Below, piece by piece: positions 4,252-56,395 of a stretch of DNA of 64,000 bases; within the stretch, counting starts at the first letter, position 1, and the number at the start of each line of letters is the position of its first letter. The notes below the pieces were generated by a model, which ran no database searches, was not told the origin of the DNA, and saw nothing but the letters and a program-made list of their open reading frames with translations. This stretch comes from Dehalococcoidia bacterium (GTDB lineage: Bacteria; Chloroflexota; Dehalococcoidia; Lucifugimonadales; Australimonadaceae): assembly GCA_965248065.1 (NCBI GenBank), contig OZ252088.1:2709202-2773201 (forward strand), written 5' to 3'. The position numbers and the translations under genes are program-made.

Positions 4252-4279
4252 ACGGCTCCTGCCATCCCCGCCCCTTCTG

Positions 4280-5221
4280 TCATCCCCGCGAAAGCGGGGA
4301 AAGGCCGGTGATCTCGGCGAGGCGCTCGGCGTGCTCTTCCAGGTCGAACACCGGATTGAGCAGCACCTCGTCCACGCCCATCTCCGACCACTCTTCAAGT
4401 AGCTCTTGTATCTTGGACGCGCTGCCCCAGACCGCTGCCCGGTCGGCGTTGTCGGCATTGCCGTAGTAGTAGCCGTACCACTCCCGCAGCCGCCGGTGGG
4501 CGCGCGCCTCGTCGTCGTCGACCGCCAGGTACAGGCGTTTCGATATGGGGAAGGTCGCGGGGTCGCGGTCCGCCTCGGCCAGCAGCGATTGCACCAGCTC
4601 CACCTTGCGCGGGAAATCGTCGAGCGCCGAACTCCCCGCGCCCATCCAGCCGTCGGCGATGCGGACGGCCCGCTTGAGGGCTTGGTCCACGTTCGCGCCG
4701 AACCAGATGGGCGGGTGCGGCTTCTGCAGAGGCTTCGGCTCGATGTTCACGCCGTCGAGGTTGTGGAAGGTCCCGGAGTAATGCGCAGGCGTCTGGGTCC
4801 AGAGCGCCCGGAGGACTTCGACCTGCTCGGTGAAACGGCTCACCCGACGCTCGGGGCTGACGCCGTACATCGGAAGCTCGTCGGCGTTGTTTCCGAGGCC
4901 AACGCCCAGGATGAGACGCCCGCCGCTCATCTGGTCGACGTCCGCCATGAGCTTGGCCAGGTGTATGGGGTTGTGCCTCGGCAGCACGAGCACGGAAACG
5001 CCCAGCCGCGCCCTGGACGTCTGTCCCGCGATGTAGGCGAGGAAGGTCGTCGGGTGAAGCACGTTGGGCCGCCCCGTCACGCGCTCTTGGGTCCAGAGGC
5101 TGGAATACCCCAGCGTCTCGGCCCTCCGGACGAACCGGCCCACGAATTCCATGTCCACCTTGCCGTCGGGAAATATGTGCGGCGAGGCGATTCCTATCTT
5201 CATCCCATCTGCTATCGACAT
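4280..5221 (-). CDS. Luciferase-like (LLM) flavin/F420-dependent oxidoreductase
   Basis: AETLGYSSLWTQE, RLILGVGLG, PKPLQKPHPPIWFG, AVRIADGW. The stop lies inside a REP palindrome (4279-4300). Confidence 0.9.
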   Translation of the reverse strand: MSIADGMKIGIASPHIFPDGKVDMEFVGRFVRRAETLGYSSLWTQERVTGRPNVLHPTTFLAYIAGQTSRARLGVSVLVLPRHNPIHLAKLMADVDQMSGGRLILGVGLGNNADELPMYGVSPERRVSRFTEQVEVLRALWTQTPAHYSGTFHNLDGVNIEPKPLQKPHPPIWFGANVDQALKRAVRIADGWMGAGSSALDDFPRKVELVQSLLAEADRDPATFPISKRLYLAVDDDEARAHRRLREWYGYYYGNADNADRAAVWGSASKIQELLEEWSEMGVDEVLLNPVFDLEEHAERLAEITGLSPLSRG

Positions 5222-5292
5222 TGCTCTTTCCTCTCAGGGGAGGAGTCATGGTAGGGGATGGGCGGCGCCGGGGAAAGTGGGCTCCTCCCCCC

Positions 5293-5533
5293 CTAGAGTG
5301 TCAGTTTGAGCAAAAAATTCAAAATCTGACCAAAACCTCCGGCATAGGCGTGACGGGATGAGTTCGGGGTCAGCTGAGGCGCGTTGAAGCCCCTCCTTGA
5401 CGGGCGATGTAGACTGACCCTTGCCTAGGGAAGCCTCGCCATGCTCAAAGTAGCTGGGGCGCGGACTCGACGCGCCCCCTTGTGAACATCGCTGGCACAG
5501 GGCTTCCCTAGGCAAGGAGTCCAAACGCTCTAG
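5293..5533. mobile_element. Possible MITE/IS remnant bounded by CTAG, with an internal 17-bp perfect inverted repeat
   Basis: CTAG at 5293 and 5530, weak inverted end similarity (CTAGAGTGT / CTAGAGCGT). Perfect IR CCTTGCCTAGGGAAGCC at 5419-5435 and 5501-5517. Confidence 0.3.
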
Positions 5534-5551
5534 CGTCACAAGGGGGTTTCC

Positions 5552-6517
5552 ATGAATAAGGCCAGCGTGTTTGCCCTGCTCGTTGCCACGCTCCTCATAG
5601 TCGCCTGTGGGCAGCCTACTCCGACTCCGACTGCTACTCCCATGCCAACGCTTACTCCTTCGCCAACGCCTGAACCAACGCCTACCCCTACAGCTACTCC
5701 TATCTCGATGCCTACTCCGACTCCGACTGCTACTCCCATGCCAACGCTTACTCCCTCGCCAACCGCTACATCTACACCTACTCCCTCGCCGACGCCTGAA
5801 CCTACGCCTACACCGACACCAAACATTGGACTATGGACGACTTTCGACACGGCTGACCCAGTAACAGAGGATCGCACTCATGGCATCAAACTCTTAGGAG
5901 ATACGCCTGGGCAATCGTTGACCATCCAATGCCAAACATCTGATAGCTCAGTTTATCCTTGGTCGTTTGACCTGATAGTTGAGTTTGGAACTCAACTGAC
6001 GCCAGGAGGAGTTCCATATGCCGGAAGCAGGTGGTTTATTTCCACAATACAAAACGTATACAGAGTCCAAACAGAAAGCAATCCATCGAGTATCAATTCA
6101 TGGGATGCTTTGCCGTCCGGTTCCGAACTTGTTTGGTCGAGAGTCAACTCCCGAATATATCAATCGTACAACGATTATCCTAGCGCAGCAGACTTTAGCA
6201 ATCCCACTCCAGAAGAACAAGCCGCTATAGATGCTTACGTGCGAGGAGCACAAGAGGCACAAAACAAAGACAAAGCAGCTCTGCGTGAGTTCGTGAAGCG
6301 ATTGACCAATGCCGATATGTTTGCTATACGCGCGTTCGGAGGTCAACGAATTGAAAGCAGCAGGTTCGAGTTCCCAGAAGGTTCTTTTGGAGAGACATTA
6401 GCTCAACTTGTCGTGCCCGAGCACCCGCACCTTGCTGTTTTCGATATCCGAGGTCTAGATGTCGCGATACAGCCCATATATGAATCGTGTTGGGAATATC
6501 CTGAGCCAACAGCTTGA
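5552..6517 (+). CDS. Lipoprotein with Pro/Thr-rich linker, unknown function
   Basis: Signal peptide ending LIVA-C (lipobox), ~65 aa PT-repeat with an internal duplication, globular C-terminus, lower GC than the backbone. Confidence 0.8.
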
Positions 6518-6547
6518 CAGCCGAAGAAATAGGAGGAGGCAAGGTCG

Positions 6548-6787
6548 ATGACAGAAACTCCGAGAGACCCCATCGACGATGTCCGATTCGCCACGCAAAG
6601 CATCATAAGAGTTGATCTTCTTCGTCAGAAGATTCATCTGGTGTTTCAAACACGACAACGGAACCAATCGGAAGATTCTCAATCTCAGCCATTGTCGGTA
6701 GAGTTGCCGGCGGAGGATGCAGTGGCCCTTGCCAAAGCAATATTGTCGGATGCTGAGACTCTCCTAGATATAGACGTACAACCATGA
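6548..6787 (+). CDS. Small hypothetical protein
   Basis: SD GGAGGAGG upstream, 79 aa, directly follows the lipoprotein gene. Confidence 0.6.
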   Translation: MTETPRDPIDDVRFATQSIIRVDLLRQKIHLVFQTRQRNQSEDSQSQPLSVELPAEDAVALAKAILSDAETLLDIDVQP

Positions 6788-6850
6788 TGTTCTACCCCTC
6801 CTTGTCTCTAAGTAGACACGCGAGGTAGAAATGACAAGGATTGCCCTCCC

Positions 6851-7183
6851 CTACGGCGGGATCGAGCGGGCAAGCTGCTCCAGGGTAAACGGCTCTCCGG
6901 TCAAGCCAGCGGCCATCGCGGGCGTTACGTCCAGCCCGTTCTTGCGGAGGGTCGAGTGCGGGCGAATGTAGTTGTAGTAGACCGTATGCAAGGCGACCGC
7001 ATGACGGTGCTTCAATAGGCTCTTGGAGAAGGAGTCGGCCTGGCGGGTATAGCGCTTCACCGACATGCGTAGGGTCTTGTTGTATCGTTCGATGTAATTC
7101 GTGTGCATGATGGACGTGTCGGGGTCGCCTATGACGATTTCCTTCCTGATGCCGAACAAGCCGCCAGGAGAGCCGCCCGGCAC
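6851..7183 (-). pseudogene. IS1-family transposase C-terminal remnant
   Basis: GDPDTSIMHTNYIERYNKTLRMSVKRYTR...SFSK...YYNYIRPHSTL...TPAMAAGL. 5' part is missing and truncated next to REP sequence. Confidence 0.75.
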
Positions 7184-7426
7184 TCAATCCGTCATTGCCT
7201 CGAAAATAGGGCTCCGCAGAGGTGGCTTTAGCCATCCTCTACCCCCCTCCCGTCATTCCCGCGAAGGCGGGAACCTAGGATGCCCCCCGCGCCCCACGTA
7301 CCTGTAGGGGCGTCCCTTGTGGGCGCCCCCGCCCAATAGGTTCGCCGTCCCCAACGCTCCCGTCCCCTCCTTGCCAAGGAGGGGCTAGGGGTGGTTCCGT
7401 CTGCGCGGGGGAGGACACCCACCCCC

Positions 7427-7456
7427 TTGACGCCATAGACAATCCTATGTCATAAT
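7427..7456 (+). promoter_or_regulatory. Putative sigma70 promoter upstream of terL
   Basis: TTGACG (7427) - 18 nt - CATAAT (7451), with TG at 7448-7449 (extended -10 position). Confidence 0.5.
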
Positions 7457-7504
7457 AACATCACACGCCAACATACACCCAACACACCGAACCCCCGAGC
7501 GGAC

Positions 7505-7542
7505 GAGCCGCCGGAGCCACAGCAAGGCCCGGCGGCTCTTTT
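7505..7542 (+). terminator. Terminator/attenuator-like hairpin in the terL leader
   Basis: GAGCCGCCGG (7505-7514) pairs with CCGGCGGCTC (7529-7538), followed by TTTT. Confidence 0.5.
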
Positions 7543-7578
7543 CGTTCCGCCGGGCGCCGCCCACGAAAGGAGGACCCC

Positions 7579-9028
7579 ATCAAACGCTCACGCCCCAAGG
7601 ACACCCCCATCGACCTCTCACCATACCGCGACGACCCCCTCGGCTTCGTCAAAGACATCCTCTCCGGCTCCGGCACGCCCTACGCCAAGCAGGAAGAGCT
7701 CCTCCGAGCCCTCGTCAGCGACAAACGCCGCGTCTCCGTCGTCGGATGCAACTCCTCCGGCAAGGACTGGGCCGCCGCTCGCGCCATCCTCTGGTGGATC
7801 GAGACACGCCCCAAAGCCAAGGTCATCGTCACCGCCCCCACCCTCCGCCAGGTCAAGGAGATCGTCTGGGAGGAGCTCCGCGCCGCCCACGCCGCCGCCA
7901 AACACCGCCTCTCCGGTTCCGTCCGCGTCGGCGAGTACCGCGCCGGCCCCGACCGCGTCGGCCTCTGCATCACCTCCAACAACCAGCACAATCTTCAGGG
8001 CTTCCACTCCCCGGAGCTCCTCGTCATCGTCACCGAGGCCCAGGGCGTCAAGCAGCCCTACTTCGAGGCCCTCAAACGCCTCAACCCCAAGAAGATGCTC
8101 CTCCTCGGCAACCCCCTCTCTCTCACCGGCGAGTTCTACGACTCCCACCACGGCAAGAGCCCCCTCTACGAGCGCGTCTCCATCTCCGCCTACGACTCCC
8201 CCAACGTCCAGGAGGGCCGCCTCGACGCCCTCCCCGGCCTCGTCACCCCCGAGGACGTGGAGGAGCGCCGCCAGGAGTGGGGCCCGGACTCCCCCCTCTA
8301 CATCGCCTCGATCCTCGGCGAGTTCCCCGAGGCCCTCGAAGACTCCCTCACCTCCCGCCCCCACGTGGACGCCGCCGTCGAGCGCTGGCGCCGCGAGTCC
8401 CCTTCCGTCATTCCCGCCTGCGGGAGGGGACGCGCGAGCGCAGCAAAGCGCGGGGGAGGCGGCCCCCCTCATCCCGCCCAGCGACGGCCCCCACCTCAAC
8501 CAGCCCTGGCGCATGGGCGTGGACGTCGCCCGGTTCGGCAACGACAAATCCGTCATCTGCCTCCGCCGCGGCGACCGCGTCGAGCGCCTCATCGCCTTCG
8601 AACGCAAGGACACCATGCGCCTCGCCGACGAGGTACGCGAGATCGCCGAGACCCTGCGCGTCCCCGCCGTCTTCGTCGACGAAACCGGCGTCGGCGGAGG
8701 CGTGGTCGACCGTCTGAAGCAGCTCCGCGTCCCCGTCATCGGCGTCGAGGGCGGCGGCAAAGCCTACCGCCCCGCCCAGTTCGCCGACATGCGGGCCGAG
8801 ACGTTCTGGGAGGTGGCGCGCCGCCTCCGCGAGGGCCAGATGTCCCTCCCGCCCGACGACGAGCTGGCAGGCCAGCTCCTGGCCCAGCGCTACGACATCT
8901 CGTCGGCGGGGCGCATCCACCTCGAAAGCAAGGCGACGCTCCGCCGTCACGGCGTCCCCTCCCCCGACAAAGCCGACGCCCTAGCCCTCGCCTTCATGGA
9001 GCCCCCCAACATGAACGTCTGGTTCTAA
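7579..9028 (+). CDS. Solitary phage terminase large subunit (ATPase + RNase H-like nuclease); ATC start; 2-nt frameshift at ~8421
   Basis: The frame open from 7459 encodes DPLGFVKDIL...YAKQEELL...GCNSSGKD...IVTAPTLRQVK...VIVTEAQG...LLGNP...ILGEFP. The second frame encodes GVDVARFGND, FVDETGVGGGVVDRL and SPDKADALALAF. SD AAAGGAGG at 7566-7573 precedes ATC 7579. Confidence 0.85.
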
Positions 9029-9096
9029 CCATGCCCCGCCATTCCGTCCCGGTATCCTGCTGCGCTCCCTGCGCCCGGTGGGTGTACAATCGCGCG

Positions 9097-11124
9097 GTGG
9101 CAAGGCTCTACCGCTACTCCCGGTGGGACGGCTCGCAGGAGCCGTTCGAAGCCGATGCCGGAGCGCTCCTCGACGCCATGGCCGAGGACGTTATCGACCA
9201 CGGCGATGTTCGCCGCGCTCTTCGCGACCTCCTCCGGCGCGGCGCCAACGGAGACGACACCCGTCTTCCCGGACTCCAAGACCTTCTCGAACGGCTGGGC
9301 TCGCGCCGCAGGGAGACCCTCGACCGGTACGACATGGACTCGGTCATGCGCGATCTCAAGGAGCGTCTCGACGACGTGCTCCAGACCGAGCGCGCGGGCA
9401 CGGACCGGCGCCTCGGCGAGATCGAACAGGACCTCGCCCGCATGAGCGGCGAGGAGGCGGAGCAGGCCGGCAAGCTGCGCGACCTCTTCCGGCAGCGGGC
9501 CGACCGCAATCGCGAACGTCTCGATCAGCTCCCCCCGAGCACCGCGGGCGCTCTGCGCGAGCTCCAAGATTTCGACTTCATCGACCCCGAGGCCCAGCGG
9601 AAGTTCCAAGAGCTGATGGACGAGCTCCGCAAGGAGATGCTCGGCTCCGTCGCCTCCGAGATGCGGCAGCAGATAGAGAGCATGGACCCGGAGCAGATGG
9701 CCCAGGCGCGCGAGATGCTGCGCGACCTGAACCAGATGATGCGGGACAAGCTCGCCGGTCTGGAGCCCGACTTCGAGGGCTTCATGGACAAGTGGGGGGC
9801 CATGTTCGGCGACGACCCGCCGCGCAGCTTCGACGAGCTCATGGAGATGCTCGCGCGCCAGATGGGGCAGATGCAGTCCCTGCTCGACAGCATGTCGCCG
9901 GAGCAGCGGCGCGAGCTGTTCGAGGCGATGAACTCCGCCATGGACGGCGACACCGCCGGCGAGCTCGCCGAGCTCGCCGCGAACCTCGGCCAGCTGCTCC
10001 CGTTCGACGACTTCTCGGAGCAGTACCCGTTCCTGGGCGAGGAGAACCTGACCCTGGAACAGGCGATGAACGTCATGGGCGAGATGCAGTCGATGGACGA
10101 CCTCGAAGCGCAGATCCAGCAGGCGATGCGCCGGGGCGACCTCGACGAGCTCGACGCCGACATGCTCGAAACCATCCTCGGGGAGGAGGCCCGCCAAGAC
10201 CTGGACCGGCTCGCGGAGATGGCGAAGCGGCTGGAAGAGGCGGGCTATCTGCGGCGGAACGGCGACCGCTTGGAGCTGACCCCGGCCGGCGTGCGGAAGA
10301 TCGGCCAGAAGGCGCTGCGCGACCTGTTCGGCGACCTCCGCAAGGGCCGCGCGGGCGACCACGAGCTAACGCTGAGGGGCTCCGGCGGCGAGCACACGGA
10401 CGAGACCAAGCCCTACGAGTTCGGCGATCCGCTGGAGATTCACCTGCACCGCACCATCATGAACGCCATCGAGCGTCAAGGCATCGGGACGCCGGTCAAG
10501 GTCGGCATCCAGGACTTCGAGGTCAGACGCACCGAGCACATGGTGCAAGCCGCCACCGTTCTGCTCATCGACCAGAGCCGGTCGATGGGGCTGTTCGGCT
10601 CGTGGGGGGCGGCCAAGCGGGTGGCGCTGGCGTTGGAGGCGCTGATACGCGGCAAGTTCCCCCGCGACCGCTTCTGGATGCTCGGCTTCTCCGACTACGC
10701 CGTCCCCATCAGCGCCGACGACCTCCCGACGCTCTCGTGGAACGCGTGGGTGTCGGGCACGAACATGCAGCACGCCTTCGCCATGTCGCGCCGTCTGCTC
10801 GCCCCCTACAAGGACTGCTCCAAGCAGATCCTGATGATCACGGACGGCGAGCCCACGGCCCACCTGGAAGGGACGCGGGCCTACTTCAACTATCCCCCGA
10901 CGCACCGCACCATCCAGGAGACCCTGCGGGAGGTCCGCCGCTGCACCGCCGAGGGCATCACCATCAACACCTTCATGCTGGAGACGAGCTACTACCTCCT
11001 CGATTTCATCGACCACGTAACCCGGATCAACAACGGCCGGGCGCTATATACGTCGCCGTCCAATCTGGGGCAGTACGTGCTGGTGGACTATCTGAATAAT
11101 CGGCGTCGGCGGGTGGTGAGTTAG
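9097..11124 (+). CDS. VWA-domain protein (YRYSRWDGSQ N-terminus; mycobacterial Rv0959-like)
   Basis: GTG 9097, coiled-coil N-region, MIDAS DQSRSMG, GTN and ITDGEPTAH motifs. Confidence 0.87.
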   Translation: MARLYRYSRWDGSQEPFEADAGALLDAMAEDVIDHGDVRRALRDLLRRGANGDDTRLPGLQDLLERLGSRRRETLDRYDMDSVMRDLKERLDDVLQTERAGTDRRLGEIEQDLARMSGEEAEQAGKLRDLFRQRADRNRERLDQLPPSTAGALRELQDFDFIDPEAQRKFQELMDELRKEMLGSVASEMRQQIESMDPEQMAQAREMLRDLNQMMRDKLAGLEPDFEGFMDKWGAMFGDDPPRSFDELMEMLARQMGQMQSLLDSMSPEQRRELFEAMNSAMDGDTAGELAELAANLGQLLPFDDFSEQYPFLGEENLTLEQAMNVMGEMQSMDDLEAQIQQAMRRGDLDELDADMLETILGEEARQDLDRLAEMAKRLEEAGYLRRNGDRLELTPAGVRKIGQKALRDLFGDLRKGRAGDHELTLRGSGGEHTDETKPYEFGDPLEIHLHRTIMNAIERQGIGTPVKVGIQDFEVRRTEHMVQAATVLLIDQSRSMGLFGSWGAAKRVALALEALIRGKFPRDRFWMLGFSDYAVPISADDLPTLSWNAWVSGTNMQHAFAMSRRLLAPYKDCSKQILMITDGEPTAHLEGTRAYFNYPPTHRTIQETLREVRRCTAEGITINTFMLETSYYLLDFIDHVTRINNGRALYTSPSNLGQYVLVDYLNNRRRRVVS

Positions 11125-11161: not shown

Positions 11162-11413
11162 ATGTCCACGACCACACTCAATATCCACGAGGCGAAGACG
11201 CACCTCTCCGAGCATCTTGCCAAGCTGAAAGAGGGCGACCGGATCGTCCTCTGCCGCCGCAACCACCCCATCGCGGAGATTCTGCCCATCCCAGAGCGCG
11301 ACTCCACCCCTCGCCCCTTTGGCCTCGGCAAGGGACTAGCGGAGATCCCCGACTCGTTCTTCGACCCGCTTCCCGACGATCTGCTCGACCTCTTCGAAGG
11401 CAAAGGCGAGTAG
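11162..11413 (+). CDS. Phd/YefM-family (VapB) antitoxin
   Basis: LNIHEAKTHLSEHL N-terminus, RPFGLGKG...FFDPLP C-terminus, directly upstream of a PIN toxin. Confidence 0.88.
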   Translation: MSTTTLNIHEAKTHLSEHLAKLKEGDRIVLCRRNHPIAEILPIPERDSTPRPFGLGKGLAEIPDSFFDPLPDDLLDLFEGKGE

Positions 11414-11426
11414 GGCGGTCGGGAGC

Positions 11427-11809
11427 GTGCGGCTGCTGCTCGACACCTCTGCGTTCATCTGGCTGGCGGAAGGCGAGAGGCTGAGCGAGTCGGCCCGCGA
11501 CCTGATCTCGGACGCCTCCAACGACGTCTTCCTGAGCGCCGTGTCCGCATGGGAGATATCCATCAAACACGGCCTCGGACGGCTCGTCCTGCATTTGCCC
11601 CCGGACGAGTATGTCCCGCAGCAGCGGCGGCTTCACCGAGTGGAGCCGCTGCCCGTCACCGAGGCCGCCGCGTTGCAGGTAGGCAAGCTGCCGGGTCTTC
11701 ACCGCGACCCGTTCGACCGGCTCATCGTGGCGCAAGCCATCGTCGAGGGCTGACCGTGGTGACTTCCGACCGCCTGATTAGCATGTACCCTGTACCGGTC
11801 GTGTGGTGA
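11427..11809 (+). pseudogene. VapC PIN-domain toxin, 1-nt frameshift at ~11749 (possibly sequencing error)
   Basis: LLLDTSAFIW...SAVSAWEI...HRDPFDRLIVAQAIVEG. The expected tail LTVVTSDRLISMYPVPVVW* continues in another frame after a G-run one base short. Confidence 0.85.
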
Positions 11810-12218: not shown

Positions 12219-12272
12219 TCGTTCTTCGACCCGTTGCCCGATGAGCTGCTTGATTTGTTCGAGGGGAAGGGC
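12219..12272 (+). pseudogene. Remnant of a second vapB antitoxin 3' end
   Basis: Encodes SFFDPLPDELLDLFEGKG versus SFFDPLPDDLLDLFEGKG at 11354-11407; differences are almost all synonymous. Confidence 0.7.
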
Positions 12273-12292: not shown

Positions 12293-13129
12293 TTAGAGCA
12301 AGCCAAGCCCGTGTTCGAGGTCTCGAAGCTGTTTCTTTAGATCATAGAGCCTTTGGAGCTGTTCTACTTCTAAGAAACGAATTGCCGAACGAATCTCATG
12401 GAATGTCCCGGAGAGCAGCGCATTGATGGACTGGCGTTGTTTCTCCTGCGCAACGATGAAGATACGGCTATTCCAGAGGTCGTAGGCGTGCTTTAGCTTT
12501 CCGAGAGCATGGTAAATGTCGCCGCCTATCTGTACCTCGAACACAAAAGTGGGAACGGAGTTCGCTACTCGACGCCATACAACATCGAGGCGTTCGTTCT
12601 CCATCTTGTATTCCTGTTCCGCAAAATATCGCTGCATAATGCCCGCTTCGACAAGCTGTTCTTTCAGCCGGTTGTGCAGGGAAGGTTGTGGCTGAGACGA
12701 TGGCCCCGTCGTGATTGCTTGCCCGGTGAAGCTAAGCATCAGTTCTTCTGCGAGGGATGGATCAATCGATTGAAAGCCGCCTCTCGCTAGAGTTCTGACT
12801 CTCTGGTCTGCTAGGGCACTCTCCTTCCATTGTTCAAAAGGAACCGTCCGCTCTATGTCAAATTCGAAGCGAAGCGGCCATAGGACTGAGTTCTGTTCAA
12901 TTTCTTGAGTCCATAAAGGCTTGTCTTGTCTAAACTTCTTGCGTACTGTTCCATGACCGATAATCCCTGCTATTGGAGTCGTTGCATAGAAGAGGACTTT
13001 GTCATTTTCAGCAATCAGTTCCCACATCAGGGCAGGCCTGCCGTCGTTCTTCAGTCCCCAGATGTTTTCTTGCTCGAACGCTTCGAGCCATTGTTTAGGC
13101 TGCCCAACTGCTAACCACCACCGTGGCAT
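12293..13129 (-). CDS. EVE-domain / PD-(D/E)XK-type nuclease fusion (candidate modification-dependent endonuclease)
   Basis: N-terminal EVE-like pattern (WGLK...NDKVLFYAT...GIIGHGTV...LWPLRF). C-terminal RLDVVW...FVFEVQ nuclease-like motif. Lower GC. Confidence 0.7.
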   Translation of the reverse strand: MPRWWLAVGQPKQWLEAFEQENIWGLKNDGRPALMWELIAENDKVLFYATTPIAGIIGHGTVRKKFRQDKPLWTQEIEQNSVLWPLRFEFDIERTVPFEQWKESALADQRVRTLARGGFQSIDPSLAEELMLSFTGQAITTGPSSQPQPSLHNRLKEQLVEAGIMQRYFAEQEYKMENERLDVVWRRVANSVPTFVFEVQIGGDIYHALGKLKHAYDLWNSRIFIVAQEKQRQSINALLSGTFHEIRSAIRFLEVEQLQRLYDLKKQLRDLEHGLGLL

Positions 13130-13253
13130 TCTTTTCTCCAAAATTGAGAATTCGAACAGGAGTATAGCAGTTGGGCGCGAGATGCCGTTGCCCCCTTGAC
13201 AACCCCCGCCCCGGTCCGATATGGACCCGCGACTACTTGCGGGAGGCGTCGTC

Positions 13254-13626
13254 ATGGGGTTGAGCATCGGCATTATGAAGGTTGAATACCTGGAGAGGCC
13301 CGATGGGGCGGCGTACAAGTTCGCGCAGCACATGGCCGAGGAAGGCGCGATGGACGCCTATATGTTCGGCGACGGCGGCAGCTGGATCCCGTTCACGCAG
13401 CGCCAAGTGTTGGAGTTGTTGGACGTATTCGCCGCCAGGAGGGGTCTGAGCGCGGTCGACCGGCGGCTGGTTGTTGAGTGGCTGATGGAGTTGCCGTGGA
13501 TTGGGGGGGTGGCGGGACGCGCTGCCGCCGGACGACGGCCGCGACAGCGAGGACGGCTATCACGCCGTGATGGACAACGACGACCTCCGCGACGGCGGCC
13601 TCATCGAGCTGCACTTCAACTGGTGA
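13254..13626 (+). CDS. Hypothetical protein, probable frameshift in the G7 run at 13503-13509
   Basis: SD GGGAGG then ATG 13254. Removing one G gives a coherent end WRDALPPDDG...GGLIELHFNW*. Confidence 0.5.
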
Positions 13627-13952
13627 TTCCCCGCCCGGAGACCCGTTCGCCGCGACAGTTGCCCATTGCCCGGTCGGCCCATGCCCCCTACCCTGTCTCC
13701 TAGAGCCCGCGTCCGGCGCCCTGGCCGCCCTGGCCGCTCACCAAGGAATGTCACCAGATGTCACCTTTTCTCAGAACCATCTCCTCTGAGAACGCCTAAC
13801 CCAGGCGTGCGCGGGGCTTCACTCTTGGGTCCAACCTTCCGCTGGGAATACCTTACATAGAGCTTGCGAGCTCCTATCGTGGGGGCCTCCAGTCCACCGG
13901 AACCTTAACCTGCCGCTCATTGACCGGGGGGCGGGGCAGCCGTAGAGTGGGA

Positions 13953-14360: not shown

Positions 14361-14440
14361 CCCGCCCCCTCCCTAACCCTCCCCCGCAGAAGACGGGAGA
14401 GGTAACCGGACACCCCCCTCCACAGTCCTCCCCCGCAGAC

Positions 14441-14627
14441 CGGATCTTTGCGTAACCCTATTATCTGGCGGGCGTAACTGTTCCCGCCCACCCACCCGTC
14501 ATGTTGTGGAGGACACCCCCACGCCCCCGGCAGAGGGGCGACGCCCCTCTGCGCTCCCCCGTATTCCAAGCCGGTCCATGGTCAGACAGGCCCACTACGA
14601 ACCCGGTTGAGGTTACGCAAAGGTCTC
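14441..14627. mobile_element. 187-bp MITE, copy 1 (TIR GAGACCTTTGCGTAA, 6-bp TSD GCAGAC)
   Basis: Right TIR TTACGCAAAGGTCTC at 14613-14627, degenerate left TIR, GCAGAC at 14435 and 14628. Inverted homologue at 53299-53486. Confidence 0.75.
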
Positions 14628-15649: not shown

Positions 15650-16667
15650 TCAGCGGCGCAAGCACGTTCTCGACCTCGACGACTTTTCGCGCGAGGAGAT
15701 TCTCGGCGTGCTCGACCTGGCCGAGGCGATGCGCGAGCTGCTGGGGCGCAGCATCAAGAAGGCGCCCTCGCTGCGGGGGAAGGTCGTCATCACCGTGTTC
15801 CTCGAACCGAGCACGCGGACGCGGGTCTCGTTCGAGCAGGCGGGGAAGATGCTCAGCGCAGACGTCATCAACGTCAGCGGGTCGGGCAGCAGCGCGGAGA
15901 AGGGCGAGTCGCTCCTCAACACGGCGCTGACGCTCCAGGCGATGCGCGCGGACCTCATCGTCATCCGCAGCCCGCACTCGGGCGCGCCCTACTTCCTCGC
16001 CAGGAACCTCAACCGCGCAGGCGTCGTCAATGCGGGCGACGGCCGCCACGCCCACCCGACGCAGGCGCTCCTCGACCTGATGACGATGCGGCATCACCTG
16101 GGCGACCTCGCCGGCAAGAAGGTCGTGCTCGTGGGCGACTCGCTGCACAGCCGCGTCGCGCGGTCGGACATCTTCGGACTGACCGCGATGGGCGCTTCGG
16201 TCGTGCTCTCCGGGCCTCCGACGATGATCCCGCTCGACCTGCTCAAGGGCAATGGTTCCCGCCTTCGCGGGGATGACGGAGAGGGAGGGCTGCGAGGTTC
16301 CCGCCTTCGCGGGAATGACGGAGGAGCCCCTAGCCTCACGGTCGAGCCCGACCTTGACGCCGCTATAGAGGACGCCGACGCGGTTATCGCGCTCCGCATC
16401 CAGAAGGAACGGCAGGAGGCCGGGATGCTCCCGAGTATGCGCGAGTACACGCGCCGCTGGATGATTTCGGAGGCGAGGCTCCGCCGGGCCAAGCCGGGGG
16501 CGCTGCTCATGCACCCCGGCCCGATGAACGAGGGCCTCGAAATCGCGTCCTCGCTGGCGCACGGGCCCGGCGCGCAGATCGAGGAGCAGGTCACGAACGG
16601 CGTGGCGATTCGGATGGCGTTGCTTTATCAGCTACTTACCGGCGCGCAAGAAGAGGCCACGGAGTGA
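15612..16667 (+). CDS. pyrB: Aspartate carbamoyltransferase catalytic subunit with in-frame REP insertion
   Basis: FLEPSTRTRVSFE, NAGDGRHAHPTQALLD, VGDSLHSRVARS, MHPGPMN. Confidence 0.95.
   Translation: MNVPLQGGGGQTNQRRKHVLDLDDFSREEILGVLDLAEAMRELLGRSIKKAPSLRGKVVITVFLEPSTRTRVSFEQAGKMLSADVINVSGSGSSAEKGESLLNTALTLQAMRADLIVIRSPHSGAPYFLARNLNRAGVVNAGDGRHAHPTQALLDLMTMRHHLGDLAGKKVVLVGDSLHSRVARSDIFGLTAMGASVVLSGPPTMIPLDLLKGNGSRLRGDDGEGGLRGSRLRGNDGGAPSLTVEPDLDAAIEDADAVIALRIQKERQEAGMLPSMREYTRRWMISEARLRRAKPGALLMHPGPMNEGLEIASSLAHGPGAQIEEQVTNGVAIRMALLYQLLTGAQEEATE
16254..16320. repeat. Two GTCATTCCCGCG-type REP palindromes inside pyrB
   Basis: GGTTCCCGCCTTCGCGGGGATGACG and GGTTCCCGCCTTCGCGGGAATGACG, translated as GSRLRGDDG...GSRLRGNDG. 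Confidence 0.85.
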
Positions 16668-23594: not shown

Positions 23595-25262
23595 ATGGTC
23601 GAAGATTCACGAGAAACTCAGCAGCCGGAGGACGCCCCGCGTCCATCACGGCGGCGGTCGCCGCGACGGCCCGCCCCGGACGCCGAATCGCCGGACGCCC
23701 CCATCGTCGGGGCGCAACCGGACAGCGAGCCGGCCAAGCCCCCTGCGCGCCGCCGCAGGGCCACCCGGACACGGACGGAAACGTCGGCGGACGCAACTCC
23801 GGAGGCTGCCGCGGCGGCGCAGCCCGACGCGACGGCGGACGAGCAGCCGAGGCCGTCGCGCCGGAGGCGTCCTCGCAGATCGCCTGCCGAGGCCCCTACA
23901 GCGGACGCCGACGAGTCGGCGTCCCAAACTGCGCCGCTGGCCGAGCCCGCCACGGAAAGTCCCTCGCGACGTCGGCGCGGACGCGGCGGGCGTCAGACGG
24001 ATGCTCCAGATATCACAGGCGGTGTGGCATCCAAGGCTGAGCCCCCCGAGGCGAAAGGCGATGCCGTCGAGCAGCCGTCTCGTTCGGGACGCGGACAGCG
24101 GGGGCGCGGCGGGCGTCAGACGGATGCTCTAGACCCCGCTGGCGTCTCGGCATCCAAGGCTGAACCCCCCGAGGCGAAAGGCGACGACGCCGAGCAGCCG
24201 TCTCGTTCGGGACGCGGACGCCGGGGGCGCGGCGGGCGTCAGACGGATGCTCTAGACACAGCGAGCGTCTCGGCGTCCAAGGCGGAATCCTCCGAGGCGA
24301 AAGGCGATGCTGCCGAGCAGCCGTCTCGTTCGGGACGCGGACGCCGGGGGCGCGGCGGGCAGTCGGAGGCCGGCAAGGTCACGGCTGAGAAGCCCCAGAA
24401 AGCCTTCATGCATCCGAGCGAGAAGGAATTCGCCGACCTCCTGGACTACTACCACATCAACTATCTCTACGAGCCCCGGTCCTTCCCTCTACGCTGGGAT
24501 GGAAACCGGGTCGTCGAGATGTTTACGCCCGACTTCTACCTGCCGGAGTACGACCAGTACTTCGAGCTGACGACGATGAAGCAGAGCCTGGTCACGCAGA
24601 AGAACCGGAAGCTCCGCCACGTCCGGGAGATGTACCCGGAGGTCAGCGTCCAACTGCTCTACCGGCGCGACCTCATGCGCCTCATGGGCAAGTACGGATT
24701 CGGGCCGCTCTCGGACGTCTCTGTCGAGGGCACGGAGCGAGTGCTGTTCAACGAGGAGCAAGTGCAGGCGCGGGTGAGGGAGCTTGGCAAGCAGGTGTCG
24801 CGAGACTACGCCGGCAAAGAGCCGGTGCTGGTCGGCGTGCTGCGCGGGGTAGTGGTCTTCATGGCCGACCTCATGCGAATGATCGATCTCCCGCTCCAGA
24901 TCGAGTTCATGGAGATATCGCACTATGGCGAGCGCGAGGAGAGCATCGACATCATCAGGGACGTAATGACAGAGCTGAAAGGCCGCCACGTGCTCGTCGT
25001 CGAGGACATCGTCGACACCGGGCTGACCTTGCGCTACCTGCTGGAGCACTTGCAGGCGAAGGGCCCCGTCAGCCTCAAGGTCTGCACGCTCTTGGACAAG
25101 TCGGTGCGCAGGATGGCGGACATTCCCATCGAGTACGTGGGTTTCGAGGTCCCGGACGAATTCGTCATCGGGTATGGCCTCGACTACGGCGGCCGCTACC
25201 GAAACCTTCCGTATATCGGCGTGCTCCAACCCGTCGAGCCCAAGGCGGTCGCTCAGCGGTAG
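23595..25262 (+). CDS. hpt: Hypoxanthine phosphoribosyltransferase fused to a disordered Arg-rich N-terminus and a nuclease-like middle domain
   Basis: C-terminal VLVVEDIVDTGLTL and FVIGYGLDY. Middle domain HPSEKEF...YEPRSF...FTPDFYLPEYDQYFELTT (~24402-24690). Confidence 0.88.
   Translation: MVEDSRETQQPEDAPRPSRRRSPRRPAPDAESPDAPIVGAQPDSEPAKPPARRRRATRTRTETSADATPEAAAAAQPDATADEQPRPSRRRRPRRSPAEAPTADADESASQTAPLAEPATESPSRRRRGRGGRQTDAPDITGGVASKAEPPEAKGDAVEQPSRSGRGQRGRGGRQTDALDPAGVSASKAEPPEAKGDDAEQPSRSGRGRRGRGGRQTDALDTASVSASKAESSEAKGDAAEQPSRSGRGRRGRGGQSEAGKVTAEKPQKAFMHPSEKEFADLLDYYHINYLYEPRSFPLRWDGNRVVEMFTPDFYLPEYDQYFELTTMKQSLVTQKNRKLRHVREMYPEVSVQLLYRRDLMRLMGKYGFGPLSDVSVEGTERVLFNEEQVQARVRELGKQVSRDYAGKEPVLVGVLRGVVVFMADLMRMIDLPLQIEFMEISHYGEREESIDIIRDVMTELKGRHVLVVEDIVDTGLTLRYLLEHLQAKGPVSLKVCTLLDKSVRRMADIPIEYVGFEVPDEFVIGYGLDYGGRYRNLPYIGVLQPVEPKAVAQR
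23982..24361 (+). repeat. 123-bp (41-aa) tandem repeat x3 within the hpt N-terminus
   Basis: CGCGGCGGGC anchors at 23982, 24105, 24228 and 24351. Confidence 0.9.
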
Positions 25263-28079: not shown

Positions 28080-28771
28080 GGCGCGCTCGCCTTCATCCCC
28101 CGCCGGCCCGTCGCGCAGAGGTCGGCGAGCACGCACGACGCGCATCGCGGCTCACGCTTCACGCATACCTCCTTGGCGTGGGCGTCGAGGAGCGCATGGT
28201 ACTCGTTGTAAAGCTGGGCGTCGTGCGGGAGATTCTGCTCGAAAAGCGCCTGATAGGCATCGTAGCCCCTCAGCGCGCGGCGCGGCATCATGCGATCGAT
28301 GATGCGCTGGGTGTAGACGTCGATCACAAAGGACGGGAGGCCTGCTGCGTAGAGAACGATGTCATCCGCGGTCTCCGGCCCTATGCCGTGGACGGCGAGC
28401 AGCTCGGCGCGCAGCCGGCGGGGGTCCATGCGGCGCCACTCCTCGACGCTGTCGCCGTAGCGTCCCAGGAAATCGGCCATGGCCTTGAGCTTGCGGGCCT
28501 TGGCGTTGAAATAGCCGCTGGGCCGGACCGTCTCGGCGAGGTCGGGCTCCGGCGCGGCGCGCAGGGCCGACGCGGACATCAGCCCAGCCGCCCTGAGGTT
28601 GGCGATGGCTCGCGCGGCGTTCATCCACGCCGTGTTCTGGGTGAGTATCGCGCCGATGATCGTCTCGAACGGGCCGTCGCCGGGCCACCAGCCCTGGGGG
28701 CCGTAGTGGTCGAAGAGCCGCCGGTACACCTCGCCGAGCAGCTGGGCCGCGCGCGCGGAGCGGGGCGTCAC
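28076..28771 (-). CDS. Endonuclease III-like HhH-GPD DNA glycosylase
   Basis: FETIIGAILTQNTAW, LLAVHGIGPETADDI, C-terminal CxxxxPxCxxCxLxxxC Fe-S motif. Confidence 0.9.
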   Translation of the reverse strand: MTPRSARAAQLLGEVYRRLFDHYGPQGWWPGDGPFETIIGAILTQNTAWMNAARAIANLRAAGLMSASALRAAPEPDLAETVRPSGYFNAKARKLKAMADFLGRYGDSVEEWRRMDPRRLRAELLAVHGIGPETADDIVLYAAGLPSFVIDVYTQRIIDRMMPRRALRGYDAYQALFEQNLPHDAQLYNEYHALLDAHAKEVCVKREPRCASCVLADLCATGRRGMKASAP

Positions 28772-29535
28772 GCTGGCTCCGTGACGACGTCGACGCGCTT
28801 CACCGGCGTGATGGACGCCGTCGTCACCTCGCAGCCGATGCCGTAGAACTCGACGCCCGCGCGGGCGGACGCGGCCACAGCGACGGCGAAGGCAGGGTCA
28901 GCGGGATGCATGGCGACGGCGCGGGCGTCGGCGCGCTGGACCACGAAGAAGACGGCGGCCCGCTCGCCTTGGGCGACCGCCTTGGCCAGCTCCTCGACGT
29001 GCTTGCGGCCGCGGACGGTAGGGGCGTCCGGAAACAGCGCCACGCCGTCCTCGACGAGATTGCAGTTCTTCGCCTCGCCCCAGCACCGGTCCTCCCCTAC
29101 CCTCGCGGACGGGCGGCCGGGAAGCTGGGCCGGGCCCTCGAACAACAAGTCGAGCCTGCTCGCACCGTAGGCAACCTCCCTCCGGACGCGCTCGAAGTCG
29201 TTGAACTCAGGGAGTAGCCCGGCCCGCCACGCCTCGATCACGATGCCAGGAGGCCGCCGGGAGTCAACGCCGACCCACCGCCCTCCGTACTCGACCAGCT
29301 CGACATCGAAGCTCGTCCGGCGTTTGGGGGACGCGGCATGCCGCAGCAGGACGCTTGCGCCCGGCACGAAGAGCTCCGCCATGCGCCCCGAATTGGGGAC
29401 GTGCGCCAGCTGCAACGAGCCGTCAATCTCCACCTCGGCGGCGAACCGGTTGGGCCGGCGGACGAACGTTGCGATTAGGCTCGGGGCGGGAGCGGGGGGT
29501 ACGGAAGTTGTCGGTCTGCTATCGTCGTTCGTCAT
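28768..29535 (-). CDS. sfsA: SfsA-family DNA/RNA nuclease
   Basis: RRPNRF...AHVPNSGRMAEL, SRLDLL, EAKNCNLV, FPDAPTVRGRKHVEEL. Start uncertain. Confidence 0.88.
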   Translation of the reverse strand: MTNDDSRPTTSVPPAPAPSLIATFVRRPNRFAAEVEIDGSLQLAHVPNSGRMAELFVPGASVLLRHAASPKRRTSFDVELVEYGGRWVGVDSRRPPGIVIEAWRAGLLPEFNDFERVRREVAYGASRLDLLFEGPAQLPGRPSARVGEDRCWGEAKNCNLVEDGVALFPDAPTVRGRKHVEELAKAVAQGERAAVFFVVQRADARAVAMHPADPAFAVAVAASARAGVEFYGIGCEVTTASITPVKRVDVVTEPA

Positions 29536-29719
29536 ATCATCCGGCGGCTCCGAGGCCTTTGGGCGGCGTCCCGGCCCCGTCCAGTGGCTCTGTGGAGCGG
29601 GGGGTGGCGACACTCCATCGTAGGGGGCGCGGGGGGATTGGGCAATGGGCAAGTGTCAGTGGTAACTGTTCAGAGCTGATGAGGCGGTTGAGACGATTCT
29701 AAGTCTGATGCGTGAATCT

Positions 29720-37374: not shown

Positions 37375-37521
37375 TCAGTCCTCCCCCTCAGACGAGGGAG
37401 GAGATTAATAGTGCTCCCCCTCAGACGGGGGAGGTGGTGGTAATACTCCCCCGCAGACGGGGAAAGACGGGCTGCGAGGTTCCCGCCTGCGCGGGAATGA
37501 CGGGTGAGGACGGGAATGACG
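37375..37521. repeat. Cluster of REP palindromes (three CTCCCCC-CAGAC-GGGG units plus a GGGAATGAC unit)
   Basis: Between convergent genes; intact units at 37446-37462 and 37478-37502. Confidence 0.75.
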
Positions 37522-39406: not shown

Positions 39407-40933
39407 TTACTCAGTCTCTGCCGCTTCTGCCTGATGCATCTCCATCTCCAAGGGCACTCGCAGAAGGCGGTCCTTCAGAATCTTGATGGTGTCCGGATCC
39501 AGGTTCGAAGCTTGGTGGCGCGCCTGCCATTCCGCTATCGCATCGTATGTGCAGTGGCGTAAGTAATTCAGGACGCCTTCGCTCCCCTGTAGCTGACTCC
39601 AGTGAGGATGTTGAGTATTTATAGTAACCATGACTCTGTGGTCAGCGGTGGAGTCCACGGCGACGTAAGGATCACTGAGAGAACCGTCGCCCACAAGGTA
39701 GCCAACTATCTCAAACTGGCCTGCCTGGGCCTGGAACGTCGGGGTCCGTCCATCCATCGCTTGGGTAAGGCTTACGAAAGCTTGCGCTACGGCCTGTGGG
39801 GGCGGAACAATCTGAAGTGACACCGTATCCGCAAATTCCGGTGAACTCAGCTCATTCACTAGCTCGTCAATGGCTGTTCGCGTTTCAATGTCACTGGGTC
39901 CGCGATTATCGTCATCTCTCCTGCGCGCTCGGCGGGCGACGGCCGCGTAGTCACTACATGCCGCGCTCAAGTGTTCCTGAATTTCTTCCTCCTCATCCCC
40001 AAGCCAGAGAATGTCGTCCTTGGTATGGCTAACGTCGAACTCATCTAAGTGAATCTCACCTATCAGGCGTTGATTGATTAGGTCATTGGAGCCTTGGAAT
40101 TGCCCATATAAAGCTTCGGGGCGCCAGCTGTCAGGCCAACCACGGATGACACGGCCTGCATGCAGTATGGAAAACCCAGCACTCGATCGACTCCCTCGGT
40201 CTAAAATCCCAACCCAACCATGGACTGATTTCCCGTGAATCGTGAAGGCGAAATCTTTTCGGTAGCGCGAACCATCAGGAGCAGCTAAGAACTGGAACTC
40301 TGAGTCATCCCATTCAAGGGCTGTCCCCTGCCACTCAAGAGTAATTAGGTCATTTCGAAGATCTTGTCGGTACATAGATCGGAGAAATTGCTGAATCTTG
40401 CCTAGGGTTCGCCCTTGGAAAACTCTATTATGACTGTTTACCTCAATTACGGTATAGTGGAGATCGATCGGTTTATTGCTGGCCTCTGAGTGCGGCAAGT
40501 TACCGGTACCGGATGCAATAGCATTGACATCGACTGTAACTTTGTGTTCAGTAGTTTCACCTAATTTCTTCGTCCTAATAGTCCATATATTGCCTATCCA
40601 ACATGCTGAAGTTTTCATTCCCATGCCGAATTGAGAGCGCCCTGTAGTATTCTCAGGAGGGAATCCAACCTTGAGAGCATTCGTGAGTTCGTTATACGAC
40701 ATTCCCATAGCATTATCCGAGACTCGGAGCATCCCGCCATCATTCCTATCGTAGACGATGCCTATCGTAAGACGTTCATTGGCAGAGTTCAAGGCAGCGT
40801 CAAGCACACCCCGGTTGTCGAAGTATGACTGCGTCGCATTATCAACCAGCTCTGCAATTGCGTGCCATGGCGTATACGAAAGGCGCTTGTAGGACTGGAT
40901 AACCTCTAAGCCTAACTGCAACTGTATTGTCAT
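39407..40933 (-). CDS. MORC/GHKL-family ATPase
   Basis: AIAELVDNA, VSDNAMGM, SQFGMGMKTSA, HYTVIEV Bergerat motifs, followed by an S5-like domain. Confidence 0.88.
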   Translation of the reverse strand: MTIQLQLGLEVIQSYKRLSYTPWHAIAELVDNATQSYFDNRGVLDAALNSANERLTIGIVYDRNDGGMLRVSDNAMGMSYNELTNALKVGFPPENTTGRSQFGMGMKTSACWIGNIWTIRTKKLGETTEHKVTVDVNAIASGTGNLPHSEASNKPIDLHYTVIEVNSHNRVFQGRTLGKIQQFLRSMYRQDLRNDLITLEWQGTALEWDDSEFQFLAAPDGSRYRKDFAFTIHGKSVHGWVGILDRGSRSSAGFSILHAGRVIRGWPDSWRPEALYGQFQGSNDLINQRLIGEIHLDEFDVSHTKDDILWLGDEEEEIQEHLSAACSDYAAVARRARRRDDDNRGPSDIETRTAIDELVNELSSPEFADTVSLQIVPPPQAVAQAFVSLTQAMDGRTPTFQAQAGQFEIVGYLVGDGSLSDPYVAVDSTADHRVMVTINTQHPHWSQLQGSEGVLNYLRHCTYDAIAEWQARHQASNLDPDTIKILKDRLLRVPLEMEMHQAEAAETE

Positions 40934-40957
40934 GCGAGATCTCCTATTCGACCTTCA

Positions 40958-41746: not shown

Positions 41747-41748
41747 GT

Positions 41749-46229: not shown

Positions 46230-46514
46230 CTAGTCCCGTGGCTCCGTCAATGGGAGGGTTGCGGGATTATAGCAGCCCCCTCCGTCATACCCCGCAGCCG
46301 AGGCCTTGCGTAACCCCGCGTTGGGGCGGAGGGAGCGACGGGGAGGGGCTTGGCATGACGAGTCCTCGTCATTCTCGCGAACGCGGGAATCCAGGGTGGC
46401 CGACAGGCCACATCCGGAGCGTCGGCAGGGGGAGGGCGACCGATACCTAGGTTCCCGCTTTCGCGGGAATGACGGGTGAGGACCGCGCCGCTGTCGCGCC
46501 GCTACGAGGTTCCC

Positions 46515-47397: not shown

Positions 47398-47479
47398 CCT
47401 TCCCGCCTTCGCGGGAATGACGGAAGGGGGCGGCCTGTATAATCGCTGTCCGGTAGGAGACGGCGAGGCAGGCGTGGTT

Positions 47480-48439: not shown

Positions 48440-48455
48440 GGAGGGGGTCTGCGTG

Positions 48456-49682: not shown

Positions 49683-49784
49683 GGTCCCGCCTCCGCCAGA
49701 GGCGCGCCCTCTTCCTCAGTCCTCCCCCATAGATGGAACCTTTGCATAATTGCTCAACGCCGGGGATTCGGGGGCGAGGTTCCC

Positions 49785-50809: not shown

Positions 50810-50895
50810 CCTTCCCGCCTTCGCGGGAATGACGGAAAGGGACGTGAGAGGACGTATTCACCCCGGCGCCAGCCGTGACGGTGAGGAGAGAGACC

Positions 50896-53219: not shown

Positions 53220-53298
53220 AGTGGCCCCTTCCGTCATTCCCGCGCAGGCGGGAGAGGGGATTAAGAGGGACATGCGTCCGGCCTCCTCCCCCGTCTGC

Positions 53299-53486: not shown

Positions 53487-53528
53487 GTCTGCGGGGAGGA
53501 TTGAGGAGGGGGTCTGCGGAGGACCGCC

Positions 53529-55619: not shown

Positions 55620-55668
55620 GACCGACCTCCATGTGAGGTGGCCGCGAGTTTAGCAGGTCGCCCTCGCC

Positions 55669-56391: not shown

Positions 56392-56395
56392 GGGC

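Follow-up and report, generated by a model that had tools for sequence, protein, structure and literature searches.

Why should a bacterial chromosome carry a gene for the large subunit of a phage terminase (TerL) that stands apart from every other packaging or capsid gene? The question is raised by positions 7427-9028 of a 64,000-nt stretch of DNA from a Dehalococcoidia bacterium (contig OZ252088.1, positions 2,709,202 to 2,773,201 of the forward strand), which as a whole is called the window here. An earlier inspection of the letters alone, referred to below as the sequence-only reading, had described a solitary, self-promoted TerL gene, and had proposed that paralogues be counted, a TerL phylogeny with gene neighbourhoods be built, dN/dS be computed and unlinked portal or capsid genes be sought. 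Judging from the comparison of related genomes carried out in this study, the locus is one copy of a bounded, multicopy and selected TerL cassette that carries the same cis-elements as the scattered capsid operons of the lineage. To the reading that such copies are paralogues of a packaging enzyme, acting in trans and under common control with a dispersed head system similar to a gene transfer agent (GTA), we give a probability of about 0.5.

Identity and reading frames of the window copy

The locus consists of the following elements.

7427-7456 (+): promoter-like site, with a -35 box TTGACG (7427-7432), an 18-nt spacer, TG (7448-7449) and a -10 box CATAAT (7451-7456)
7499-7542 (+): leader element, with the box GCGGACGAGCC (7499-7509), a 10-bp GC stem GAGCCGCCGG/CCGGCGGCTC (7505-7514 and 7529-7538) and the T-run TTTT (7539-7542)
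7565-7611 (+): translation start region, with a Shine-Dalgarno (SD) sequence GAAAGGAGGA (7565-7574), ATC (7579-7581) and a 30-nt duplication that gives AAGGA and a second ATC (7609-7611)
7579-8400 (+): TerL ATPase domain, codon starts of remainder 1 modulo 3; Walker A GCNSSGKD (7744-7767), LLVIVTEA (8017-8040) and GNP (8107-8115)
8401-8500 (+): interdomain linker of 100 nt (1 modulo 3), built of repetitive extragenic palindromic (REP)-like repeat modules (CCTTCCGTCATTCCCGCCTGCGGGAGGGGACGCGCGAGCGCAGCAAAGCGCGGGGGAGG; repeat family D10)
8501-9028 (+): TerL RNase H-like nuclease domain, codon starts of remainder 2 modulo 3; aspartate codons 8522-8524 (GVDVA), 8678-8680 (FVDE), and 8966-8968 and 8975-8977 (SPDKADA, 8966-8977)

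The window protein is a TerL by fold and motifs. Both of its halves match the PHROG family phrog_2, 'terminase large subunit' (6e-24 for the N half and 1.5e-11 for the C half), and a PDB profile search matches it to the TerL nucleases 8dkr and Sf6 gp2. An AlphaFold (AF2) model of the intact homologue P0055, which is 60% identical, reached a pLDDT of 88.8 and matched Sf6 gp2 at 5e-21 across both domains, as it did T4 gp17, D6E and HK97 TerL (Foldseek range 5e-21 to 1e-13). The Q motif PYAKQ, GCNSSGKD, GNP and the aspartates of GVDVA, FVDE and SPDKADA are invariant throughout the family (alignments A1 and A2), so the two domains, the Q motif, the GNP and the three nuclease aspartate motifs that the sequence-only reading had reported are all borne out. 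The Walker B position, equally invariant in these alignments, reads LLVIVTEA, with TE in place of DE. A loss of ATPase activity was considered on this account and rejected, because viral members of the same clade have the same TE. When the window halves and intact homologues were scanned with Pfam (its Terminase models included), NCBIfam and PADLOC, nothing rose above the curated thresholds except that P0082 reached that of Terminase_6C. The PADLOC defence-system models gave no significant match for P0001, P0055 or P0067, and an exact-sequence lookup of the 171-aa open reading frame (ORF) returned no record.

In one respect the sequence-only reading did not stand: 7427-9028 is not a single ORF. 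Position 7427 belongs to the -35 box and is no start codon. A mechanical listing of ORFs gives only 8513-9028 in the reported frame and 8095 as the first canonical start of the other frame, and three-frame translation places the ATPase domain from ATC 7579 or ATC 7609 to 8400 and the nuclease half in a different frame at 8501-9028. The frame shifts between the domains because the linker, at 100 nt, is 1 modulo 3. Its modules are those of a REP-like repeat that is dispersed over the window (GTCATTCCCGC...GCGGGAA and CCCGTCTGCGGGAGGGGA...GCGCGGGG). In 14 other copies of the same subfamily, the linkers are differing combinations of these modules, 102-273 nt long and of 11 different lengths, yet all 14 are stop-free multiples of three and, among the 15, the window's alone is out of frame. 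Translation in this family must therefore run through the REP-derived linker, and the window copy is the exception. The same REP modules are read in frame inside the TerL linkers of relatives as RHSRESGNPE and VIPAQAGIQ.

Because its REP-derived linker is one base out of frame, the window copy as sequenced cannot yield a two-domain enzyme. Either it was disabled very recently or one or two bases were gained or lost in assembly; we judge a real inactivation slightly more likely than an assembly error. On the second view, the one-base offset would be a fault of assembly or consensus, and the organism would encode a full-length solo TerL. An error site can be named in the GC-rich, repeat-derived stretch with G5 and C6 runs at about 8450-8470, and elsewhere in the window two IS30-like copies are distinguished by, among other things, a 1-nt indel in a C-run. 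Moreover, both halves are stop-free and have a low dN/dS (0.07-0.20, see below), the private amino-acid changes of the window copy are few and conservative, and all of the 14 other linkers are in frame. However, the 2-nt difference in length from the closest linker, that of L016, falls in a different REP module (CCTTCCGTCATTCCCGCC versus GGCGACTCCCTTCTCCCGTCC) where there is no homopolymer run, and about 12 of 60 copies, the window copy included, are frameshifted or truncated in their assemblies, so real decay is common. An intact copy seems to us to fall somewhat short of an even chance; it concerns the status of the window copy only and is compatible with either of the functional readings weighed below. 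The ATPase frame (7579-11124) stays open through the out-of-frame nuclease region and into a downstream vWA gene in the same frame, so that gene prediction may yield a chimeric ORF of about 1000 aa (8095-11124).

The start of translation is also unusual. There is no in-frame ATG, GTG or TTG before 8095 in the ATPase frame of the window. All 16 aligned copies of subfamily 1 (sf1), to which the window copy belongs, have a strong SD followed 4-8 nt later by ATC (ATT once) and are devoid of ATG, GTG or TTG before the ATPase domain, and subfamily 2 (sf2) has an ATG at the codon equivalent to the sf1 ATC. Translation of sf1 is thus probably initiated at AUC. The C-rich third codon positions, which had been described as unlike those of the neighbours, are largely as claimed: the proportion of C is 0.75 in the ATPase half and 0.67 in the nuclease half, against 0.31-0.57 (about 0.45) in neighbouring genes, but one neighbour also has 0.67.

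The cassette family, its control elements and its origin

The family was scanned with one genome per species and the loci around the matches were examined; copy numbers are lower bounds from pattern-seeded scans. The scan yielded 63 loci, almost all in metagenome-assembled genomes (MAGs) of Dehalococcoidia and many per genome, at 5-12 dispersed sites in each. There are at least 11 copies in OZ251500.1, at least 7 in OY282355.1, at least 5 in OZ244741.1 and at least 12 in CBDHDB01, where two subfamilies are about 93% and about 64% identical to the window. The description 'solitary' is hence true of the 64-kb window and does not extend to the genomes, in which the gene is one of a multicopy family. 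The copies resemble one another over about 1.6 kb, from the -35 box to the stop codon (9026-9028 in the window, the right edge), and this similarity is confined to the cassette even when copies are 95-97% identical. On either side there are unrelated genes and REP clusters, the copies lying in REP-rich intergenic DNA. For some 45 solo copies, the surrounding 10 kb contained none of the genes of a packaging or head module (small terminase subunit TerS, portal, capsid).

Of 60 copies, about 45 have a continuous reading frame. When the window copy was compared pairwise with eight intact ones, dN/dS was 0.12-0.20 in the ATPase half and 0.07-0.12 in the nuclease half, with no internal stops; both halves are under purifying selection. 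Mosaic pairs point to exchange between copies, and several copies are orthologous between species. The window is syntenic on both sides with a locus of CBDHDB01 (L020) at 90-94% nucleotide identity. The slot between the syntenic flanks (5292-9079), in which the TerL copy and a fragment of an insertion sequence (IS) of the IS1 type lie, is variable: it holds an sf1 copy on the + strand in the window and an sf2 copy in the opposite orientation in L020. A tRNA or tmRNA gene was sought as a shared left flank of L001, L008, L011 and L013 and was not found, and a repeat beside L045 was rejected as a TerL-linked element because it is an ordinary IS5-like transposase. Some members carry N-terminal extensions, namely an HTH_3 domain in portal-linked Chloroflexota genes (L017/L018, P0067) and a basic AKPPKGHDDAPS repeat in the solo copies of OZ251500 (L045-L053), which may substitute for a small terminase.

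The promoter, leader hairpin and SD that the sequence-only reading had assigned to this gene were all confirmed. The promoter-like site has 10 of 12 matches and is the single such site in 2.6 kb, where 0.1 would be expected. It is conserved in 15 other copies, and the similarity between copies begins at its -35 box, the left edge of the cassette. Its -10 region, TGTCATA, is common to the window copy and the promoters of the protease operons. The leader folds at -49.9 kcal/mol (z -3.4), and its hairpin and T-run look like an intrinsic terminator, a function that is predicted. The leader box and hairpin occur together once in the 64-kb window, at TerL. In 3.2 Mb of fetched loci they gave 47 matches, all on the gene strand, and these precede sf1 solo TerLs, the operon of protease and major capsid protein (MCP; about 25 genomes) and a small-protein/adaptor operon, and nothing else. 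A scan for the box alone also located it directly upstream of one solitary portal (L169), where the hairpin is imperfectly paired. The stem covaries between copies (GAGCCGCCGG/CCGGCGGCTC, GAGCCCCGG/CCGGGGCT, AAGCCCCCGG/CCGGGGGCTT). These leader scans used regular expressions, as MAFFT put stems of different length out of register. Rfam gave no family for positions 5000-9300 of the window or 9000-10200 of L001.

A second control element is the upstream motif TGACA-N3-GCCC-N-TTG, followed after about 17 nt by a -10, for which there were 64 matches against about 0.5 expected. It precedes solo TerLs of the other subfamilies, solitary portals, cluster TerLs and MCP operons. By this motif, the leader or both, the solo TerLs, the protease-MCP operons, the adaptor operons and some portals would share their control. 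In the window, a similar sequence lies near 13653-13691 (+). The arrangement in the cassette recalls the late control of phage lambda, which consists of the promoter PR', the terminator tR' and antitermination by Q. Both appear to have a strong sigma-70-type promoter and a terminator-like hairpin within about 50 nt, directly 5' of packaging or head genes. In contrast to lambda, the cassette is repeated before each dispersed operon and solo TerL and has a conserved GGAC(G/A)AGCC box, and its antiterminator is hypothetical.

The origin of the family is visible in its relatives. IMG/VR contains 146 viral relatives at about 40% identity, and in one IMG/VR locus (L093) the TerL relative lies inside a canonical TerL-portal-protease-major head module. 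Relatives from Chloroflexota and Dehalococcoidia that are 53-62% identical to the window protein are located directly 5' of an HK97-type portal and a prohead protease. In a neighbour-joining tree, the solo lineages are nested among portal-linked TerLs of phages and prophages, and copies of one genome group together. On the evidence of this tree and these neighbourhoods, the solo TerL family descends from a portal-linked TerL of a phage-derived head-gene set. It shares with phage TerLs (Sf6 gp2, T4 gp17, HK97, D6E/P74-26) the fold of an ASCE ATPase and an RNase H-like nuclease, the Q motif, Walker A, the coupling motif and the acidic residues. However, the phage relatives of the same clade adjoin portal, protease and capsid genes, whereas the window family stands alone in 5-12 copies per chromosome, without an adjacent TerS or portal and with its own promoter, a terminator-like leader, an AUC start (in sf1) and a REP-invaded linker. 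The window copy thus lies outside any packaging or head module and is not a single ORF with a standard start, though most other copies of the family are continuous.

The remaining head genes are found elsewhere in the genomes of relatives. A portal search gave 224 matching stretches, from which 80 loci were kept, each from a different genome and at 47-76% identity to the query. An MCP search gave 257 matching stretches at 58-100% identity, and the loci kept are nearly all from different genomes, one genome having two. Portal and MCP lie at 1.54 and 3.02 Mb in OZ251500.1, at 0.46 and 2.23 Mb in OY282355.1 and at 0.22 and 2.21 Mb in OZ220673.1; in complete chromosomes they are often 0.8-2 Mb apart. 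Protease and MCP are adjacent at 63 of 63 loci, with an adaptor nearby at 38, a portal within 6 kb at 12 and a TerL at 10. Around the solitary portals lie ordinary host genes, and from one genome to another nothing but the portal gene itself is shared; genomes with solo TerLs of the third lineage (sf3) have a portal locus without a TerL within 6 kb. In the nearest relatives of the window (90-95% nucleotide identity), a helix-turn-helix (HTH) regulator of the HTH/ImmA type, TerL, portal, protease, major head protein and head-tail adaptor are linked; PHROGs confirmed these roles, host genes follow the cluster, and no integrase or replication gene was seen in the linked cluster examined. At the level of gene content, these data establish that at least 224-257 species-level genomes of Dehalococcoidia/SAR202 carry a head set (TerL, portal, protease-MCP and adaptor), normally in one copy and often split. 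A CofE-like gene syntenic with the MCP locus might have argued for vertical inheritance, but this was dropped, since the synteny occurs at 4 of the 63 loci only.

In the 64-kb window itself, tblastn with family-specific queries detected no homologue of portal, protease, capsid or adaptor, and a Pfam scan of about 30 window ORFs revealed none either. The earlier statement that the window has no phage context holds for head genes and for phage integrases, of which none was seen. It needs to be qualified for transposases, as rve-type enzymes are present (IS30-like at 46557-47420 and 49827-50832, and the IS1-like fragment at 6851-7183).

What the cassette may do

We propose that the solo TerLs are packaging ATPase-nucleases that would act in trans within the same regulon as the scattered capsid genes. 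A constitutive-looking promoter would be followed about 45 nt later by a terminator, which a shared antitermination factor would overcome, as in lambda PR'-tR', and translation of sf1 would be throttled additionally by the non-canonical AUC start, leaving the cassettes nearly silent. On induction, TerL would bind to the portal of procapsids whose genes lie elsewhere, and would there cleave and translocate DNA, much as in a GTA or a capsid-forming satellite. The sequence-only reading had offered a dispersed GTA-type packaging gene as one explanation, and this idea gains real support from the scattered and conserved head genes, often megabases apart in relatives, and from the leader common to the protease-MCP and adaptor operons. 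RcGTA is a gene transfer agent with unlinked accessory loci, and the present system would resemble such GTAs in keeping phage-derived head genes, as a rule once per genome, across a lineage, in split loci and with common cis-signals, and in having, in the cluster examined, no integrase or replication genes. The linked clusters are also similar to capsid-forming phage-inducible chromosomal islands (cf-PICIs), which have a tail-less head module with an HTH/ImmA-type regulator, TerL, portal, protease, HK97-type capsid and head-tail adaptor. Unlike in cf-PICIs, no integrase or replication module was seen, the genes of the set can be megabases apart, the set occurs in hundreds of species, and the solo TerLs lie outside islands.

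Several points weigh against the GTA-like reading. Its main weakness is that it leaves the amplification of TerL alone unexplained, a cluster TerL being present in the closest genomes as well. That portal-linked TerL is not accounted for by a simple GTA reading, and it would make at least six extra sf1 and at least six sf2 copies superfluous for packaging. GTAs differ in this very respect, since TerL is here amplified into many paralogous cassettes while relatives also retain the cluster-linked gene, and we know of no GTA that amplifies its TerL. The clusters that were examined yielded no genes for tails, lysis or TerS (tails were not searched genome-wide), and the link between TerL and a head set in the source organism is deduced from relatives because the window itself has no head gene. 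The terminator role of the leader hairpin is a prediction, and sf1 is devoid of the upstream TGACA-N3 half of the promoter motif. In the window, that motif is found as well in front of an ordinary gene (at least one), which is SfsA-like (28768-29652), just 5' of it at 29658 (-); either it is a more general type of promoter, or the regulon includes SfsA, whose product has a nuclease fold. Finally, the roughly 20% of copies that are frameshifted or truncated have the look of decaying selfish repeats.

The chief rival takes up this last point. A TerL with its promoter would be a selfish mobile cassette that spreads within genomes like an IS, selection acting on the element and not on the host; its own ATPase and RNase H-fold nuclease might work in a transposase-like manner, or it might be mobilised or recombined through REP clusters. 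As in insertion sequences and RAYT/REPIN elements, there are multiple dispersed copies with identical boundaries, sharp even between copies of 95-97% identity, always within REP-rich intergenic DNA, in part decayed or truncated and homogeneous within a genome. The 5-12 copies per genome include several co-resident subfamilies, copies of one genome group together in the tree, mosaic copies speak for exchange, and the syntenic slot has different occupants in related genomes. By analogy with transposase genes, the AUC start and the leader terminator might serve as self-restraint. However, by the available tests the cassette is no IS. The best inverted match between its ends is 5-8 nt, equal to shuffled controls, so there are no terminal inverted repeats beyond chance; no target-site duplication is visible at the aligned ends; and among the 63 loci there are only orthologous filled sites and no clean empty one. 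The product is a terminase and not a transposase of a known family, sf1 has neither a sequence-specific DNA-binding domain nor a known recombinase, and the right edge is merely the stop codon. Gene conversion alone can account for the similarity within genomes, and since several copies are orthologous between species, turnover must be slow. The leader and promoter are common to capsid operons, which points to host or late-gene wiring. We consider a selfish cassette unlikely, although it remains the chief rival and the two explanations are not mutually exclusive.

A further reading would make the terminase cassette a new mobile gene, whose own promoter-to-stop unit is copied or moved into REP-rich DNA by the ATPase and RNase H-fold nuclease of TerL and still belongs to the late-gene antitermination circuit of the dispersed, class-wide capsid system; we hold this to be quite improbable. 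A role as an anti-phage decoy or defence nuclease, in which host TerLs or the ATPase-only product of the broken window copy would disable or commandeer the packaging motors of incoming phages, is without support and seems very unlikely. The other proposal of the sequence-only reading, a repurposed DNA translocase or nuclease, likewise gained no support. The catalytic motifs are retained, defence-type genes do occur in the window (a restriction-modification-like island at 39407-43976, toxin-antitoxin pairs and an EVE-domain protein), and multiple copies could, speculatively, suit diverse phages. However, PADLOC gave no match, no conserved defence genes lie beside the copies, nothing ties expression to infection, and the regulatory elements are common to the host's own capsid genes. 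That the gene is the last one of a decayed prophage is effectively excluded, as the sequence-only reading had anticipated: this copy is frameshifted, has atypical codon usage and lies beside an IS fragment in a variable low-GC slot, but the same bounded cassette is found at dozens of unrelated loci without other phage genes, with a conserved promoter and leader, in-frame linkers and strong purifying selection (dN/dS 0.07-0.20).

A search of the literature on terminases, GTAs and capsid genes together with Dehalococcoidia, SAR202 or Chloroflexota, incomplete in its coverage, found no description of this TerL family. An amplified stand-alone TerL with a repeated promoter-terminator cassette would be unusual among domesticated phage packaging and head genes. 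If the GTA-like reading is true, Dehalococcoidia/SAR202, which rank among the most abundant bacteria of the sea and of sponges, carry a conserved phage-derived capsid system, whose genes are scattered over the chromosome under one promoter-plus-terminator cassette while the packaging enzyme is multiplied. A GTA-like system would thereby be added to a phylum in which the literature search found none. Its regulon would be held by antitermination leaders, and the family would offer a natural experiment on TerL paralogues with different linkers. If instead the cassette is selfish, a terminase would for the first time be the core of a transposon-like element. TerL serves as a standard marker gene for viruses, so surveys of MAGs will mistake these solo copies for prophages.

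Surroundings of the locus

The window otherwise contains housekeeping genes, toxin-antitoxin pairs, IS fragments and the restriction-modification-like island. Two features adjoin the cassette on its left.

7236-7420 (no strand): REP-like repeat cluster in the left flank, outside the conserved unit; families D7, D9, D10, D12 and D13, inverted pairs I3, I6, I12 and I13
6851-7183 (-): C-terminal fragment of an IS1-like transposase (rve_3 and DDE_Tnp_IS1)

The dispersed REP-like palindrome, CCCCTTCCGTCATTCCCGCGnAGGCGGGAAyC, is present in intergenic regions at no fewer than 13 sites of the window, e.g., 4271-4306, 7244-7279, 16245-16326, 37469-37508, 46360-46480, 47389-47428, 50801-50840, 53225-53260, 55666-55945, 60028-60089 and 63034-63064. 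A second dispersed non-coding repeat family is represented by an inverted pair of 184 nt (14431-14614 and 53313-53496), 89% complementary and 38.7 kb apart, which also occurs in L025 and L057. Further to the left in the variable slot, a region with a GC content of about 0.55 (5552-6787, +) comprises a lipoprotein-like ORF with an 18-nt-periodic Pro/Thr-rich repeat (5614-5835) and a small ORF downstream; neither has a Pfam family, and both are absent from L020.

The island at 39407-43976 (-), with a GC content of about 0.50, encodes an HATPase_c_3 protein, an unknown protein of 272 aa, a ResIII/DEAD helicase and an N6/N4 DNA methylase, and looks like a horizontally acquired restriction-modification or defence-type module. 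Two IS30-like copies (HTH_38 and rve) in direct orientation, at 46505-47428 and 49775-50840, surround an aspartokinase-like gene (48384-49682). An indel of about 142 nt and the 1-nt C-run indel distinguish the two copies, and at least one of them is therefore broken. Phd/YefM-PIN toxin-antitoxin pairs are located at 11162-11753 and 55978-56656; a C-terminal coding stretch of the antitoxin recurs at about 12219-12272 (80% identical), next to a low-GC EVE-domain gene (12293-13333). In-frame tandem repeats occur in two further genes: 123-nt units at 23973-24360, inside the ORF of a phosphoribosyltransferase-domain protein (23595-25262), and 387-nt units at 58628-59540, which correspond to repeated Cache domains in 58377-59774.

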